Shown here in pieces: positions 42,426-62,623 of a stretch of DNA of 64,000 nucleotides (the first letter of the stretch is position 1; every line of letters begins with the position of its first letter). The notes below the pieces were generated by a model. It ran no database searches. It worked only from the letters and a program-made list of their open reading frames with translations, and was not told the origin of the DNA. Location of the stretch: the NCBI RefSeq assembly GCF_003991155.1, contig NZ_CP031293.1. One strand, written 5' to 3'. Both the position numbers and the translations under genes were made by a program. Origin of the DNA: Escherichia coli. Its GTDB lineage: Bacteria; Pseudomonadota; Gammaproteobacteria; Enterobacterales; Enterobacteriaceae.

Positions 42426-42719
42426 ATGAAAAAAATGTTGTTTTCTGCCGCTCTGGCAATGCTTATTACAGGATGTGCTCAACAGACGTTTACTGTTGGA
42501 AACAAACCGACAGCAGTAACACCAAAGGAAACCATCACCCATCACTTCTTCGTTTCGGGAATTGGACAGGAGAAAACTGTTGATGCAGCCAAAATTTGTG
42601 GCGGCGCAGAAAATGTTGTTAAAACAGAAACCCAGCAAACATTCGTAAATGGATTGCTCGGTTTTATTACTTTAGGCATTTATACTCCGCTGGAAGCGCG
42701 TGTGTATTGCTCACAATAA
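42426..42719 (+). CDS. bor: Bor lipoprotein (Iss-family serum-resistance protein)
   Basis: Start MKKMLFSAALAMLITGCAQQTFTV... with lipobox; convergent with Rz as in lambda. Confidence 0.9.
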   Translation: MKKMLFSAALAMLITGCAQQTFTVGNKPTAVTPKETITHHFFVSGIGQEKTVDAAKICGGAENVVKTETQQTFVNGLLGFITLGIYTPLEARVYCSQ

Positions 42720-43688: not shown

Positions 43689-44015
43689 TTACTCCTTAGA
43701 GCCACCAAACTTGTTACCGATTACTCTCATTGCAGCCCCACGAATAGCATCAACACCGATCAGCCCCACCCCACCACCAATGGCAACAGATAGTGATTTA
43801 GGCCATCCGACATACTCAAGAGCGGATGCAAAAGTCAGCGTCAGAGCGCCACAGAGTAGAATTTCGAGTGTTTTTCGCTTCCAGCCGCCACCACCGCCAA
43901 AATAGGCAATACGTAAACCAGCCATAACAATCGACATAATCACTGCGCCCAGCGGTGTGTCTCCACGCCACCAGCTCTGGACCAACTCCAGCCATGTATT
44001 TGGGTTATGAGGCAT
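43689..44015 (-). CDS. Putative holin, not lambda S type
   Basis: 108-aa ORF with about three hydrophobic segments, immediately upstream of R. Confidence 0.6.
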   Translation of the reverse strand: MPHNPNTWLELVQSWWRGDTPLGAVIMSIVMAGLRIAYFGGGGGWKRKTLEILLCGALTLTFASALEYVGWPKSLSVAIGGGVGLIGVDAIRGAAMRVIGNKFGGSKE

Positions 44016-44160: not shown

Positions 44161-44189
44161 AACGACAAAACCCGCTCGATGGCGGGTTT
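44161..44189 (-). terminator. Candidate tR'-like terminator upstream of the lysis genes
   Basis: Hairpin AAACCCGC-TCGATG-GCGGGTTT; on the minus strand it is followed by a U-rich tract. Confidence 0.4.
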
Positions 44190-44306
44190 AAGCTGTGTGG
44201 CGAAGTGAGCACACTTAACAGATTACGATATTTTTTGCGTACGCGTTAGTGTTTTGATAGAATTTTCAGCCACATAAAAATTCATTCTTATAATTCGGGA
44301 TATATA

Positions 44307-45170
44307 ATGGATATAACTTGTTTAGAATGTGGCAATGTTCTTGACGACCCAACTGTAGCTTGCGATAAATGCGGTGCCACGCCTCATGTTGTAGTGCTGG
44401 GCAAACAATCGTACTTTCCTATTGGTGCTGTAACAGCAAATCTTGAAAAAAATGATTCAAGAGCATTTGATTATCGATTAGGTGAAGTTTGGGATCTAAA
44501 AAATGAAGTCACATCTGAATTCATAACCAGAATTGAGAAAAAATTTAGCCGAAAAAACAAATTTCATAACTTCCTAGACTCAGATCACAACCCTTCATCC
44601 ATTCCTACGATCCTAAAAAAATACATTAATAAGAATAATGAATTCATTGATTTATCTAGAGCTATAATAGAGAAGCTTAAACATAATGCTAATAACGAAT
44701 CGAGAGTTGCCCAACTTCAGGGGGGGAGCGTTGTTTTCATCCACTATAAGTCTACCGAACCAGAGGATTTGGGGAAACTTCTAATCGTAATGGTTGATAA
44801 ACAAAGCGCCTATGACTTTGATTCGGATAAGTTGACCCCAACAAGATTAAATCCAATTAATACCGATGCCTTACGGCAGGCTGCGATGTTCGATTTAACT
44901 TTATTCGAAGCCAGTTATCCAGAAAACAAGGGTGACTCATATGTACATTTCTTGCAAGGTAAATCTAAAAGCGATTTTTTCAAAGACTCATTAGGTTGCC
45001 GACATGATTCGGACAATAAAAGAAGCATTCAGCAATTATTCAGTGCTATAGATATTTTTGCTAGTAAAAACTCACTCGGTCGTGTACTGCGTGATACTAT
45101 TGACAATGAAGTTAAATCCTTACTGGAAAAAAATCAAAAGATAAACACGGAAATAAGTCCGTTAAGATAG
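44307..45170 (+). CDS. Zn-ribbon + NdpA/YejK-like nucleoid-associated-protein-family protein, truncated by frameshift at an A7 tract
   Basis: 287-aa ORF; N-terminal CLECGN-x10-CDKCG; FSRKNKFHNF, GGSVVFIHYK and YVHFLQGKSKSDFFKDSLG align by eye to YejK; AT-rich. Confidence 0.7.
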   Translation: MDITCLECGNVLDDPTVACDKCGATPHVVVLGKQSYFPIGAVTANLEKNDSRAFDYRLGEVWDLKNEVTSEFITRIEKKFSRKNKFHNFLDSDHNPSSIPTILKKYINKNNEFIDLSRAIIEKLKHNANNESRVAQLQGGSVVFIHYKSTEPEDLGKLLIVMVDKQSAYDFDSDKLTPTRLNPINTDALRQAAMFDLTLFEASYPENKGDSYVHFLQGKSKSDFFKDSLGCRHDSDNKRSIQQLFSAIDIFASKNSLGRVLRDTIDNEVKSLLEKNQKINTEISPLR

Positions 45171-45481
45171 AGGATATTTCAAAAATAATTGACTCATGCC
45201 TGACTGATTCACACAAATGTAAGGGAACGTTTGTCGATTTTGTTAATCTTAATGGTTTCCAGATTGACCCTCAATTTGAACCAACTCCTAAAGCAGCTGA
45301 AAGCGCGCTTACAATTGAAGTGGCAGATAACGACAATAATTTTAAGTTGAAAATAATGCGTGGAGCTATTGGAGACGAAAAGTCAAATAAGCCTGTAATT
45401 CTCACTGACAACAAATGCGAAATTGTGATAAAATTGAGTCAGGCAAATTATGATGAACTCAAAAGATATAGAGACAGCTAA
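45116..45481 (+). other. Open -1 frame continuing the upstream gene (YejK-like C-terminal region)
   Basis: Frame open from 45116 to TAA at 45479-45481, 2 nt before the next ATG; needs a -1 shift at AAAAAAA 45127-45133. Confidence 0.55.
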
Positions 45482-45483
45482 TA

Positions 45484-46698
45484 ATGACAATTGCTGATGA
45501 CTTATCAAGATTAGCGCAGATTATTAACGGAGCCTCAAGCAGAGTTGAGGGCTACTACACTGTCATAAGTCTTGAAGAAAGCATTGTTATTGTAAATAGT
45601 TCTGAAATAATTAGACTGTTACAATCTATAGGTTATAAAAAGGCAACAACCTGCATCGAAAATAATGAAATTTGGCTAGATCGCCAAGCTTCATCTTGGG
45701 ATGATGCTATAATTTATGAGAATGTTGAGTCTTTTTGGTCTAGAGTAAACACCCAAAACGCTCTTCCGAAAAATTATATCATCGGAACGCCGTTAATACT
45801 CCCTACTTCTAAGAATGAAAGCATCGAAAAAATCCATATTTTCTTTATGTGGAAAGATATCCTTTCATTAATTGCTGATCATCATAACAGTGACTGCTCT
45901 GTCTTATTTTTCACCAATGAAGACAAAAGTTATACAGTCGAACTCACGCATTTTTTACAATATAGCGAGATTAATCGCTTATCGAACTCGTCTCTTAAAT
46001 ATGAAATTATAAAGGAGCTTCTCGACACAATAAAAATCAATGATTTACACAAAAGCGAGCGCAAGCTCGTTATACGCTCAGCCATAAACGAAGTATTTAA
46101 AGCAAATGGTACGTTCAATTTCTTTGACTTGCTTAACTCTACTGAACTCGTCAGGAAAAAATATGATGAACTATATGAGATTTACACAAAGAGGTTTTCT
46201 GTAAATAAAATTCTTAACGAACTCGATGAGAAAAATCTTGAGTTCACGAGTAAAATTAACGAATTCATATCATCTAATCAGACAAAAGCATTGACTATTC
46301 CCGGTGCATTAATAGCAGCTGGTGGCTTAGTGAAGGCTAATGAAACAACCGAAGCAATATTGATTATCGCAGGACTTTGGATGATAAAAAAAGTCAATTA
46401 CATTTCTATTGAGATATTCAATGAAACATTCGACAACTTACGTTCTCGAGTGGAGTCCGCTTTCGATAAGTATTTAAAGTTTGAAGAAAATAAAGAAATC
46501 AAAGATAATGCAGATAGTATTAAGAGTAGCATTACAGGTTTGATTGATAAAGCTAAAAAAAGGATGAGAACTGTTAAATATCTCGCATCAGCCATGTTTT
46601 ATGGAGGCCTTATTTACGTTGGATATAAACAGTTCCCAGTCTTTTTTGAAAAATCGGCAGTAAATCTATTTTATTTTTTATGCCATACTATAAGCTAA
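45484..46698 (+). CDS. Hypothetical membrane-anchored protein, two C-terminal TM segments
   Basis: 404-aa AT-rich ORF; hydrophobic LTIPGALIAAGGLV...ILIIAGLWMI and YLASAMFYGGLIYVGY; no Walker or nuclease motifs seen. Confidence 0.7.
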   Translation: MTIADDLSRLAQIINGASSRVEGYYTVISLEESIVIVNSSEIIRLLQSIGYKKATTCIENNEIWLDRQASSWDDAIIYENVESFWSRVNTQNALPKNYIIGTPLILPTSKNESIEKIHIFFMWKDILSLIADHHNSDCSVLFFTNEDKSYTVELTHFLQYSEINRLSNSSLKYEIIKELLDTIKINDLHKSERKLVIRSAINEVFKANGTFNFFDLLNSTELVRKKYDELYEIYTKRFSVNKILNELDEKNLEFTSKINEFISSNQTKALTIPGALIAAGGLVKANETTEAILIIAGLWMIKKVNYISIEIFNETFDNLRSRVESAFDKYLKFEENKEIKDNADSIKSSITGLIDKAKKRMRTVKYLASAMFYGGLIYVGYKQFPVFFEKSAVNLFYFLCHTIS

Positions 46699-47034
46699 CA
46701 TTGCTAAACAGCCGTCAACAAACCCCATTGCAGTTTGCAGTTCCTTCCTAATTGTGCCATCAGAGCATTTTCTCTTCTTCGCAATAGTGCGTAATGAGAT
46801 ACCGATAACAAAGTGGGCGATGATGAGCTCATATTCCTCTGGTTTATACCTTCTCAACCGAGCCACACAACTGTCTATCATGATGCCTTCGTCATCATCA
46901 CACTGAATCCGTGACTTTTTGCCATGAGGTAAAAGTCCCTTGAAACCAGCCGCTATCGGCTGCCAGTCCACTCCGCTATTGTCTGAAGCAGCCCAAGCTC
47001 CCCAACGATCCATTACTTCATACATATCACGCAT
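46678..47034 (-). CDS. quuD: Late-gene antiterminator Q (DLP12 QuuD-like)
   Basis: Start MRDMYEVMDRWGAWAASDNSGVDWQPIAAGFKGLLP...; 3' end overlaps the convergent 45484-46698 gene. Confidence 0.8.
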   Translation of the reverse strand: MRDMYEVMDRWGAWAASDNSGVDWQPIAAGFKGLLPHGKKSRIQCDDDEGIMIDSCVARLRRYKPEEYELIIAHFVIGISLRTIAKKRKCSDGTIRKELQTAMGFVDGCLAMLAYSMA

Positions 47035-48719: not shown

Positions 48720-49664
48720 TTATGGTTTATTTTCTAGCTCTGATTTTTTGAAAGCTTCTATCAGACGATTAGCATCTTCTGTACCACCAGGAAGCACGTT
48801 TGATTTTTTAAGAATATACGGTGGGAACTTTGTGGTTAAATATTCATGCTTAAACCATCTACGAAACTCTGACAATGCAGAATCAGGATAGGCATTAATG
48901 ATCTGAGGATTGGAACTTGCCTGAAGAAAATCTTCAGGGTAATAATGCTCACAGTCTACTCTTTCTCCAAATTCTGTTGCTAACCCCTTTGCTTTCCAGT
49001 GACGCGCCCAGCAAGAACCAACACTGCCATCAGGTACGGTATGCTGATTAATCGCTAATCCAGCATTGATGAGATCTACCATCATACCTGCAATTTCATT
49101 AAATATAATGAAATACCCATCAGGTATGGTTCCCTTATCTTTTAATAAAGATACTCTGTCATGGTAATGCCTCCACGGGTCCTCCGGTTGATATTTTAGC
49201 GCCTCGTATATAAATGTCTTGAGGCCTTTTTTAGCAAGCTCTCTGTAAGATCTAATTGCAGTCTCACTTTCTGCTTGTTTTGCTTCAAAGGCATAGTATT
49301 CAAGTATAGCCATGCATACAACATCTGGATAAGCATGGTACTCAACACCATTTCGAATTATTGGTATATAAAGTTTTTCATCTGTAAAACCTTCATTAAG
49401 AAGATATGTACCAATAAAAGTCATTCTTCCTTTTTTGAAAATACCGTTCTCAACAGATTGAGCCCACTCATCGGTAATTTCCTTGATTCGCAAACGCTGA
49501 ACACCACAAACATTTGCCAACCCATTCTGAGTAAGGTACGGAATTCCGTTATCGAGTACCCCCATTTCTATACCGTTAATGACAGCCTCTTGCTTAACAT
49601 CTAAGTCTAAAGGTATGGATCTGAGGGAGGTAGTTCTCTGTTGTGCCATTTTTGATCCTATCAA
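48720..49664 (-). CDS. Hypothetical protein with possible Bro-N/KilA-N-like N-terminus (nin-region moron)
   Basis: 314-aa AT-rich ORF; N-terminal GVLDNGIPYLTQNGLANVCGV loosely resembles Bro-N; C-terminal region unassigned. Confidence 0.55.
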   Translation of the reverse strand: MIGSKMAQQRTTSLRSIPLDLDVKQEAVINGIEMGVLDNGIPYLTQNGLANVCGVQRLRIKEITDEWAQSVENGIFKKGRMTFIGTYLLNEGFTDEKLYIPIIRNGVEYHAYPDVVCMAILEYYAFEAKQAESETAIRSYRELAKKGLKTFIYEALKYQPEDPWRHYHDRVSLLKDKGTIPDGYFIIFNEIAGMMVDLINAGLAINQHTVPDGSVGSCWARHWKAKGLATEFGERVDCEHYYPEDFLQASSNPQIINAYPDSALSEFRRWFKHEYLTTKFPPYILKKSNVLPGGTEDANRLIEAFKKSELENKP

Positions 49665-49853: not shown

Positions 49854-50171
49854 CTAACAGATTTGACGCAAATACGGCAATACTCGACTCCACTTATCAT
49901 CCTGCCACGGCTGAAGTTTTACATGTGCCGTTTCTCGGACGAGGATTGCTCGCGCTCTGTTGAGTATCTGGGGATATTCTTGCTCGATGGAAGTGAAGTG
50001 ACCAGCTTCACCATGCTCCGCATCCTGAAGAAGATGAGTAACGTTCTGGTAGGCAATTAACATCACATTCCCTGCTCGCCATAACCAGGCGAGTGTGCAA
50101 AGTTCGTTATCAGTGAATTGTTTTGTGATTGGGGATTGTTGAACTGCTAGAACGAGAACGCCAGCATCCAT
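49854..50171 (-). CDS. Hypothetical phage protein
   Basis: 105-aa ORF (non-ATG start likely); between the 314-aa gene and the recombinase. Confidence 0.35.
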   Translation of the reverse strand: MDAGVLVLAVQQSPITKQFTDNELCTLAWLWRAGNVMLIAYQNVTHLLQDAEHGEAGHFTSIEQEYPQILNRARAILVRETAHVKLQPWQDDKWSRVLPYLRQIC

Positions 50172-50282: not shown

Positions 50283-51809
50283 TCAAAAATAAACCTCACC
50301 ATCAACCATATATTTGAGAGTACTTATCGCCTGCTGGGCGGATATTGTTTTCATTAAAGGATAGTGTTTAAAAACAATGCCATTCATAAAATAGATATCA
50401 CAGGTTTTATTATCTGTATTGATTATGATTTTTTCGAATGTTTTATAGGCAAGTGTACGACATAGCTCTCGCCCATTTTTACTGGTTAAGTCAATAGCAT
50501 GAAAATCACCAAGTGAGCTCACCGCTTTACTCTTCAAAGTTTTTAATGATACAGAAGCCCTTCGTAATTCCTTATCTAATACTCTGATTTTTTCTGCTAT
50601 AGCGGTAACTTCAGGCGCAACAGATAATGCAGCAATTAAATTATTAATTTTCATCTGGAGCTCAATAATTTTCAACTCTAAAGTTTCATTAGCATCTTTC
50701 TTGTTTTCAACTGGTTGGATTTTACTACAATTAAAAAGCAACTCATTAATGATATTATAATCAACCAAATCTCTCTTTATTGATGGCCTGTCACATCGAT
50801 GCAGTCTTCTCATCGGACAAACATAATAGCCATGCAAACTTCCAGATACCGCATGAACAATCATGGTATTACCACAAGCCTCGCACTTCATAACTGTTCG
50901 AAGTAGATTTATCAACATAGGATTTTTGCTACTATTGCTAATACCAAAAGGTGCCAACCGAATTTCCTGCACAGCGTAAAACAAATCATCTGATATGACT
51001 CTGGGATAATAGCCAGCGATTTCACTTATTCCTTTACCTCTTGCACGATATGAAGGTACGCATATACCTATCAGAGCTTTATTCGCTAATAATTTTTCAA
51101 TTACAGAAGGTCCCCATGCACTTTCTTTTCCTGAGAAATTCTTTACAGCATGATCATTTAAATACTTGGCTATTGCATTCAATGAGCGCCTTTCCATCCT
51201 GAGTTTAAAAATTAGCTCAATAGTTTTCACCCTGTCGGGGTCTGGAACAAAAGCCGTTCTTTTGTCATCTAAGGAGAGCCATCTCGGACAAGACGCCGTC
51301 ATAATCGTGCCTGACTCCAGTGCATCCTGCCGTTTTTTCTTCCATGATAATTTAACCCGACTTGACTTTATCTCGCTTTCTTCATTTGCCCTTTGTGCTA
51401 TAAGTATGGCTTTTATTAATGAATATGGATCATTCAAAGAGTCAATATTATAGACTGTATTATCGCAAAGAGTTATAACATCAATACCGTGATTCAAAAT
51501 CAATTTCAGACGCTCAATCGCTTCACCGACTTTTTCTCTTGAAAGTCTGTCCAGACTTTCAACTAACAATGTAGTTCCTGGCAATATATAACCATGCTCT
51601 ATAGCATCTAAAAATTCCGAAAAAGCTCCTGATTGTGCATGCTTTCCTTTGAATGCACTTAATCCTAAATCTTCATATGTTATGGTATCAAGATAATAAT
51701 CACTATTTACCTTTAACCATTCAGCAATAAGTCTTCTCTGTCGGTTTAATGAGTCGCCAGACATCTGACCTGGTGATGAAAATCGCATATATGCTATGGC
51801 TTTTTTCAT
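50283..51809 (-). CDS. ybcK: Large serine recombinase (YbcK-like)
   Basis: 508-aa AT-rich ORF MKKAIAYMRFSSPGQ... with resolvase catalytic domain, recombinase domain and Cys-rich zinc ribbon. Confidence 0.8.
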   Translation of the reverse strand: MKKAIAYMRFSSPGQMSGDSLNRQRRLIAEWLKVNSDYYLDTITYEDLGLSAFKGKHAQSGAFSEFLDAIEHGYILPGTTLLVESLDRLSREKVGEAIERLKLILNHGIDVITLCDNTVYNIDSLNDPYSLIKAILIAQRANEESEIKSSRVKLSWKKKRQDALESGTIMTASCPRWLSLDDKRTAFVPDPDRVKTIELIFKLRMERRSLNAIAKYLNDHAVKNFSGKESAWGPSVIEKLLANKALIGICVPSYRARGKGISEIAGYYPRVISDDLFYAVQEIRLAPFGISNSSKNPMLINLLRTVMKCEACGNTMIVHAVSGSLHGYYVCPMRRLHRCDRPSIKRDLVDYNIINELLFNCSKIQPVENKKDANETLELKIIELQMKINNLIAALSVAPEVTAIAEKIRVLDKELRRASVSLKTLKSKAVSSLGDFHAIDLTSKNGRELCRTLAYKTFEKIIINTDNKTCDIYFMNGIVFKHYPLMKTISAQQAISTLKYMVDGEVYF

Positions 51810-62546: not shown

Positions 62547-62623
62547 TGGCGCGCCCTGCAGGATTCGAACCTGCGGCCCACGACTTAGAAGGTCGTTGCT
62601 CTATCCAACTGAGCTAAGGGCGC
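62547..62623 (-). tRNA. argU: tRNA-Arg (anticodon UCU), attL site
   Basis: Reverse complement GCGCCCTTAGCTCAGTTGGATAGAGCAACGACCTTCTAAGTCGTGGGCCGCAGGTTCGAATCCTGCAGGGCGCGCCA; 3' 45 nt duplicated at 13823. Confidence 0.9.

Follow-up and report, generated by a model that had tools for sequence, protein, structure and literature searches.

A two-gene cassette at positions 44307-46698 of the window, the 64,000-nucleotide (nt) stretch of the Escherichia coli contig NZ_CP031293.1 (assembly GCF_003991155.1) analyzed here, lies on the plus strand between the holin and Q antiterminator genes of a lambdoid prophage. Judged by its sequence, the cassette is a copy of the already described anti-phage defense pair DS-1, and hence is not new, because the identical proteins have been published under this name and have both NCBIfam models and a measured phenotype. 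Its first gene, DS-1A, carries a frameshift, and its second gene, DS-1B, is intact. On balance we favor a reading in which DS-1 is cargo of the slot between Q and the holin and acts through an abortive-infection mechanism like that of the type II PANGU systems, with the copy in the window probably in an OFF state. A first-pass annotation made from the sequence letters had suggested an abortive-infection defense module and knew of no described system with such a composition; the suggestion of defense agrees with published data, and the claim of novelty has to be given up, as DS-1 is covered by the models NF053868 and NF053869 and the architecture has also been published as type II PANGU.

The identity of the pair was established with profile models and by direct comparison of the proteins. 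NCBIfam release 20 holds two equivalog models for the system, namely NF053868 (DS1_1_antiphage, nucleoid-associated anti-phage protein), with a cut-off of 330, and NF053869 (DS1_2_antiphage), with a cut-off of 315. The intact or repaired DS-1A scores 451 bits against the former and the truncated open reading frame (ORF) of the window 349 bits, so both exceed the cut-off, and DS-1B passes the latter with 375 bits. When one A is restored to the window gene, its product is identical to the published DS-1A (WP_000355468.1) at 391 of 391 residues, and DS-1B is identical to its published counterpart over all 399 printed residues and shares its accession, WP_000150292.1. Gene order and the 2-nt spacing are likewise the same in the DS-1 clone and in the cassette, whereas the clone encodes a DS-1A of 391 amino acids (aa) and the window carries a 287-aa frameshift allele. 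Recent RefSeq annotation calls WP_000150292.1 an 'anti-phage protein', and the truncated first gene is labeled plainly as 'nucleoid-associated protein' by RefSeq and its Prokaryotic Genome Annotation Pipeline (PGAP). PADLOC-DB 2.0 (2023) gave no match for either cassette protein, as the first-pass annotation had anticipated.

DS-1 corresponds to the working id D390 of the DefensePredictor study, in which the transcription unit comprising WP_000150292.1 and WP_000355468.1 was classed as a 'predicted novel defense gene' with a log-odds of 12.7 and was replicated (DeWeirdt, Mahoney & Laub, Science 2026, PMC13092281; bioRxiv 10.1101/2025.01.08.631726, January 2025). The phenotype was measured on the intact allele, the cloned insert being the predicted E. 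coli transcription unit, and the reductions in plaquing, given as -log10 of the efficiency of plating (EOP), were 7.6 for Bas1, 2.7 for Bas26, 1.7 for Bas3, 1.7 for T3, 1.0 for T5, and 0.9 for T7, while SECphi27 formed smaller plaques (PMC13092281). The main text of that work presents the YejK nucleoid-associated domain as newly validated in defense and gives phenotype and annotation, with no mechanism for DS-1, which was outside the set of systems studied further (PMC13092281). The locus is thus already catalogued: NCBIfam models cover it, its phenotype is in print, and a mechanism has been modeled for a matching architecture. That a real defense system was picked out from raw sequence alone speaks well for the scan.

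The allele in the window differs from the published one at a single poly-A tract. This tract is A7 in the window (45127-45133, plus strand) and A8 in strain 2016C-3878, as seen by alignment; A8 encodes the intact 391-aa DS-1A, and A9 leads to a 279-aa product ending in ...LLEKKIKR. As a result of A7 in place of A8, the ORF of the first gene ends at 45170, and the truncated product (44307-45170, plus strand; 287 aa, WP_001588485.1), comprising a zinc ribbon and the N-terminal portion of the YejK-like domain, consists of 274 authentic residues followed by 13 that are out of frame. Residues 275-391 are removed by the frameshift, and the segment at 45171-45481 (plus strand), corresponding to the C-terminal domain at residues ~288-391, is left untranslated, with the original frame ending in a TAA at 45479-45481. 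The first-pass annotation had taken the stop of the first reading frame and the ATG of the second gene to be 2 nt apart, which is right for this downstream frame and wrong for the actual ORF, whose stop is now 314 nt ahead of the DS-1B start. The Shine-Dalgarno sequence of DS-1B is weak, and translational coupling between the two genes would be lost in this copy.

The lost region aligns with the C-terminal domain of YejK, including the basic residues R276, R280, and K284 and the dimerization arm, and truncation of this C-terminal arm renders YejK monomeric and without DNA binding (PMC11229321). Because the region needed for dimerization and DNA binding in YejK is gone, and because both genes are required in the comparable system PANGU-Ecu discussed below, the DS-1 copy of the window is probably inactive. 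Four further A7 runs, two per gene, are present in the cassette as potential slippage sites (44446-44452, 44615-44621, 46386-46392, and 46555-46561).

Tract length is polymorphic in public assemblies, as the indexed blocks of the sequence collection comprise 10,333 with A8, 744 with A7, and 246 with A9. At least three prophage backbones carry A7 and at least three carry A9, with 2013 Illumina drafts among the carriers, and these alleles are most simply read as the outcome of recurrent slippage at a mutational hot spot. Their recurrence, together with a DS-1B gene that stays intact behind the frameshift, would also suit the A7 copy being the OFF state of a reversible A7/A8/A9 contingency switch, or slippage restoring enough full-length DS-1A. 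We consider this unlikely for the window copy, since a tract of eight is short for efficient phase variation, no reversion was observed, and a share of OFF alleles of about 9% would also be expected from a simple mutational hot spot under weak purifying selection. Decay is further indicated by E. coli AF5, in which DS-1A is broken by an IS1 insertion (locus L002, 3208-5157) and DS-1B is again intact; the 230-aa DS-1A remnant of this allele is present on 87 contigs, and the IS1 disruption is a second, independent route to the loss of DS-1A.

The N-terminal zinc ribbon of DS-1A, noted already in the first-pass annotation, has the form C5-x2-C8-x10-C19-x2-C22 (residues 5-22; codons at 44319-44372, plus strand), and all four cysteines are present, with a weak match to the Pfam zinc-ribbon models (E 0.14). 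The ribbon is found in enterobacterial and some other homologues and is absent from the Pseudomonas-type ones, which have an acidic N-terminal extension in its place. The expected assignment to the NA37 family (PF04245) was borne out by a Pfam match over residues 64-376 (E 1.5e-23). The AlphaFold model, with a predicted local distance difference test (pLDDT) score of 87, reproduces the two-domain fold of YejK, and the E. coli YejK structure 9be2 was its sole significant fold match in the PDB (Foldseek, E 4e-15); a DS-1A profile run against PDB sequences also matched YejK (E 3.6e-19). The YejK equivalog NF001557 gave 81 bits, under its cut-off of 341, and by these scores DS-1A belongs to the NA37 superfamily without being YejK itself, which is a housekeeping nucleoid protein (PMC11229321). 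The two share the NA37 domain and fold and a basic patch at the DNA-binding position, where the conserved segment F-x-x-G-K-S-K-S-D-F-F-K of DS-1A aligns with R173, R176, and K177 of YejK, whose mutation abolishes DNA binding (PMC11229321). DS-1A differs in having only about 19% identity to YejK, in its additional zinc ribbon, in its location as AT-rich prophage cargo, and in always being paired with DS-1B.

DS-1B (45484-46698, plus strand; 404 aa) is the membrane-anchored partner and, as noted in the first-pass annotation, contains no recognized motif, Pfam giving no match for it. In the predicted structure (pLDDT 84), residues ~1-210 form an alpha/beta N-terminal region, which agrees with the soluble region proposed earlier, and this region is mildly acidic, with a net charge of -8 and an isoelectric point of 5.3, and with a median charge of -8 over 44 homologues. 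Residues 220-268 form a long, highly conserved helix with the invariant positions Y227, S239, N241, K242, E246, K257, Q266, and K268, and the best-conserved stretch (residues 226-268; 46159-46287, plus strand) runs into the first hydrophobic segment. The two transmembrane segments first suggested are replaced by three hydrophobic helices at residues ~269-284, 290-305, and 372-392. The first two form a helical hairpin around the loop KANETTE (46288-46398, plus strand), a further long helix follows, and the last hydrophobic helix (46597-46659, plus strand) has a hydropathy signal that is weak in the E. coli protein and stands out more in its homologues. Foldseek against the PDB returned nothing below E 0.6 for DS-1B, and a DS-1B profile run against PDB sequences returned zero matches. 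A CorA-type channel was one candidate considered for this protein.

The pairing of the two genes is obligate in the contexts that were compared. A word-indexed search found 69 relatives of DS-1B, mostly in Enterobacterales, and a full profile search placed 775 clusters at 50% identity in the family, 371 of them at E <= 1e-10. Eight contexts were examined, from Pseudoteredinibacter, Pseudoalteromonas, Serratia, Yersinia, and four metagenomic contigs, with relatives as distant as E 1e-17, and in every one a YejK-like gene is located directly 5' of the DS-1B homologue with an overlap or a gap of at most 18 nt. Conservation of the pair elsewhere, which the first-pass annotation had proposed as a check, is thereby documented, and it extends to the same kind of prophage slot: the pair of Yersinia enterocolitica, with 46% and 38% identity, occupies the Q-holin slot of a different lambdoid prophage that has another holin family. 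Other homologous pairs are located in integrase islands beside AbiEii, AAA_21, nSTAND, or BstA-type genes. The INPHARED phage genomes yielded no DS-1B homologue; its occurrences were in prophages and, in a few cases, in plasmid-like records. At the Serratia loci (L006-L008), a BstA_C gene directly follows the DS-1 pair on the 3' side.

A mechanistic model is available for systems of matching architecture. PANGU systems are defined as operons of two genes centered on a nucleoid-associated protein that resembles YejK (Li et al., April 2026 preprint, bioRxiv 10.64898/2026.04.06.716658). The type II systems combine Pag2A with the transmembrane protein Pag2B, whose N-terminal domain is acidic and 'DNA-mimicking' and whose C-terminal part is a membrane region, and the representative PANGU-Ecu, from a uropathogenic E. 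coli, was studied as a codon-optimized construct induced with isopropyl beta-D-1-thiogalactopyranoside (IPTG) (10.64898/2026.04.06.716658). Both genes were required and neither was toxic alone, growth stalled at high multiplicity of infection (MOI), pointing to abortive infection, and Pag2A fused to green fluorescent protein (Pag2A-GFP) left the nucleoid upon T4 infection; Pag2A bound the N-terminal domain of Pag2B with a dissociation constant (KD) of 19 nM, and T4 escape mutants mapped to denA, encoding endonuclease II (10.64898/2026.04.06.716658). The authors proposed that phage nucleases degrade the chromosome and thereby free the nucleoid protein, which activates the effector and leads to abortive infection (10.64898/2026.04.06.716658).

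DS-1 resembles type II PANGU in being an anti-phage bicistron of E. coli with a YejK-like gene first, followed by a gene for a protein with a soluble N-terminal part and a C-terminal transmembrane part, and the DNA-binding sensor and membrane effector imagined in the first-pass annotation match this published logic. Architecture and species, as well as the size and the strict pairing of the DS-1B family, speak for DS-1 and PANGU-Ecu being the same, and the system has probably also been described as type II PANGU. One difference is the zinc ribbon, which DS-1A has and the PANGU text does not mention. Type I PANGU, in which Pag1A is paired with the GRel toxSAS Pag1B, likewise has a YejK-like sensor, for which release followed by activation has been proposed as well; its effector is, however, a soluble alarmone synthetase and not a membrane protein.

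If the type II scheme is carried over, DS-1A would sit on the chromosome as a YejK-like dimeric DNA clamp, and an infecting phage that degrades host DNA would release it. Free DS-1A would then bind the soluble, mildly acidic and presumably cytoplasmic N-terminal region of DS-1B, which in turn would damage membrane function, and the infected cell would no longer support phage growth. The phages T3, T7, and T5 degrade host DNA, and for that reason their restriction by DS-1 fits the sensing of genome degradation.

Several points weigh against this reading. The PANGU authors did not establish the route by which Pag2A would activate Pag2B (10.64898/2026.04.06.716658). When induced with IPTG, PANGU-Ecu blocks T4 by 3-4 logs, whereas Table S7 of the DS-1 study contains no T4 entry for DS-1 even though the same plates included T4; the two are either different systems or differ through expression level. 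DS-1 is also likened to PANGU-Ecu by architecture and not by sequence, the N-terminal region of DS-1B is only modestly acidic, and neither Foldseek nor the profile search against the PDB found an informative fold relative of DS-1B. Bas1 formed no plaques and its EOP fell by more than 10^7, a result that on its own cannot tell abortive from direct immunity. As regards the OFF state of the window copy, the A7 allele might keep some function through slippage.

Direct, non-abortive immunity at DNA entry was weighed as an alternative, in which the membrane protein DS-1B would bring the DS-1A clamp to the entering phage DNA and so keep that DNA from being replicated or transcribed, much as has been proposed for Kiwa, which consists of the membrane protein KwaA and the DNA-binding protein KwaB. 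A membrane protein paired with a non-specific DNA clamp and the complete block of Bas1 are compatible with such a scheme, and prophages commonly encode exclusion functions. It nevertheless appears rather improbable to us, as the architecturally matching type II PANGU shows the behavior of an abortive-infection system, with a nucleoid protein that is already on the nucleoid before infection. A relation to Kiwa itself was rejected: PADLOC gave no match, and YejK was the lone fold match in the PDB. The gene order of Kiwa is also the opposite one.

Homopolymers of eight bases are error-prone on some platforms, and A7 is found in only 3 of the 106 complete-genome carriers, namely LWY24 and two Swiss isolates of Shiga toxin-producing E. 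coli (STEC) with a different prophage, so it could be argued that the A7 arose in sequencing or assembly and that the real genome has an intact DS-1. We consider this very unlikely, given that exactly the same 287-aa product is present on 373 contigs from several sources, platforms, and prophage backbones and is carried by RefSeq under its own accession. Least of all do we expect that the pair serves the prophage itself in nucleoid organization, silencing, or lysogenic conversion, with plasmid-borne defense as a side effect, for although YejK is a housekeeping protein and the slot holds non-defense morons such as stx and nmpC in other phages, the defense is reproducible with the cloned transcription unit, DS-1A stays below the YejK equivalog cut-off, and homologous pairs occur in integrase islands next to AbiEii, AAA_21, nSTAND, and BstA genes.

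The host prophage is lambdoid and occupies the DLP12/argU site, with cus, nfrA, and ompT on one flank and an integrase gene and a tRNA gene on the other. As listed among the ORFs of the window, the cassette is bounded on the left by the lambda-family holin gene (43689-44015, minus strand; WP_001120496.1) and on the right by the Q-family antiterminator gene (46678-47034, minus strand; WP_001205470.1), which converges on DS-1B and overlaps its end by its last 21 nt. The two genes are AT-rich, as stated in the first-pass annotation, with a G+C content of 33-37% over 44200-46800 against ~50% in the flanks, which fits acquired cargo, as expected. The cargo-specific region 5' of the cassette (44256-44306, plus strand) has a weak sigma-70-like match, TTGATA-16-AAAAAT, at 44254-44281, and a GGGA sits 7 nt ahead of the DS-1A ATG. 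A promoter scan found 12 matches against 10.3 expected from shuffles, so no promoter was assigned, and Rfam had no match in or near the cassette.

Between the holin and the cargo lies a conserved block (44016 to ~44255) that is kept in 336 genomes, among prophages with different slot cargo, and its similarity to prophages whose slot holds KAP NTPase or TIGR04255 genes stops at query positions ~233-250. This block probably holds the late promoter and leader, and a terminator-like hairpin with a T-run on the minus strand (44168-44189), ~150 nt 5' of the holin gene, is a candidate tR'-type late-leader terminator. Since the cargo reaches or overlaps the stop codon of Q at its right end, in the window and in Yersinia alike, and the block of ~240 nt is conserved, its most likely place is between Q on one side and the late promoter and leader on the other, and not within the late transcript. 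The earlier description of the cassette as antisense to the late operon is therefore right as to orientation and probably wrong as to its being inside the late transcript, the cassette being upstream of the promoter and terminator block; early rightward transcription past Q would be antisense to the cargo. A literature search for a named Q-holin 'defense hotspot' found nothing specific. In enterotoxigenic E. coli (ETEC) H10407, a KAP-family NTPase gene lies on the plus strand between the block and Q (locus L020, 3297-4628), and in strain EC29 the slot holds genes for a TIGR04255-family protein and two hypothetical proteins, also on the plus strand (locus L021, 3401-5128). The holin of these two slots is identical to that of the window, and the genes they hold are candidates for further defense cargo.

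Other genes of the prophage are of interest in their own right. A full-length BstA homologue is encoded at 48720-49649 (minus strand), where the nin region is locally AT-rich; it scores 402 bits with the PADLOC model BstA and covers positions 5-291 of the 292 in the profile, and by this match it is a second known abortive-infection defense gene in the same prophage. Adjoining it is a short ORF that encodes a P22AR C-terminal domain (49854-50171, minus strand), and an iss/bor serum-survival lipoprotein gene (42426-42719, plus strand) adjoins the lysis genes. The cassette sequence is identical to that of strain LWY24; ybcK, encoding a recombinase of 508 aa (50283-51809, minus strand), is intact in the window and carries an IS3-family element in LWY24, and the tRNA gene by the integrase (62550-62623, minus strand) lies ~1.33 kb earlier than the LWY24 coordinates predict.

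With the pair itself already described, the recurrent A7/A9 polymorphism is possibly the one new point of this analysis. It can be speculated, as a tentative proposal which we would put only slightly ahead of a reversible OFF state in the window copy, that A8 is an ON and A7 and A9 are OFF states of a hypermutable contingency tract that switches a costly abortive-infection system in lambdoid lysogens, which would explain why A7 and A9 recur in several unrelated backbones while DS-1B stays intact. Whatever its origin, the A7 allele still passes the DS-1 model, and defense counts based on hits to hidden Markov models (HMMs) would score this probably inactive copy as present.

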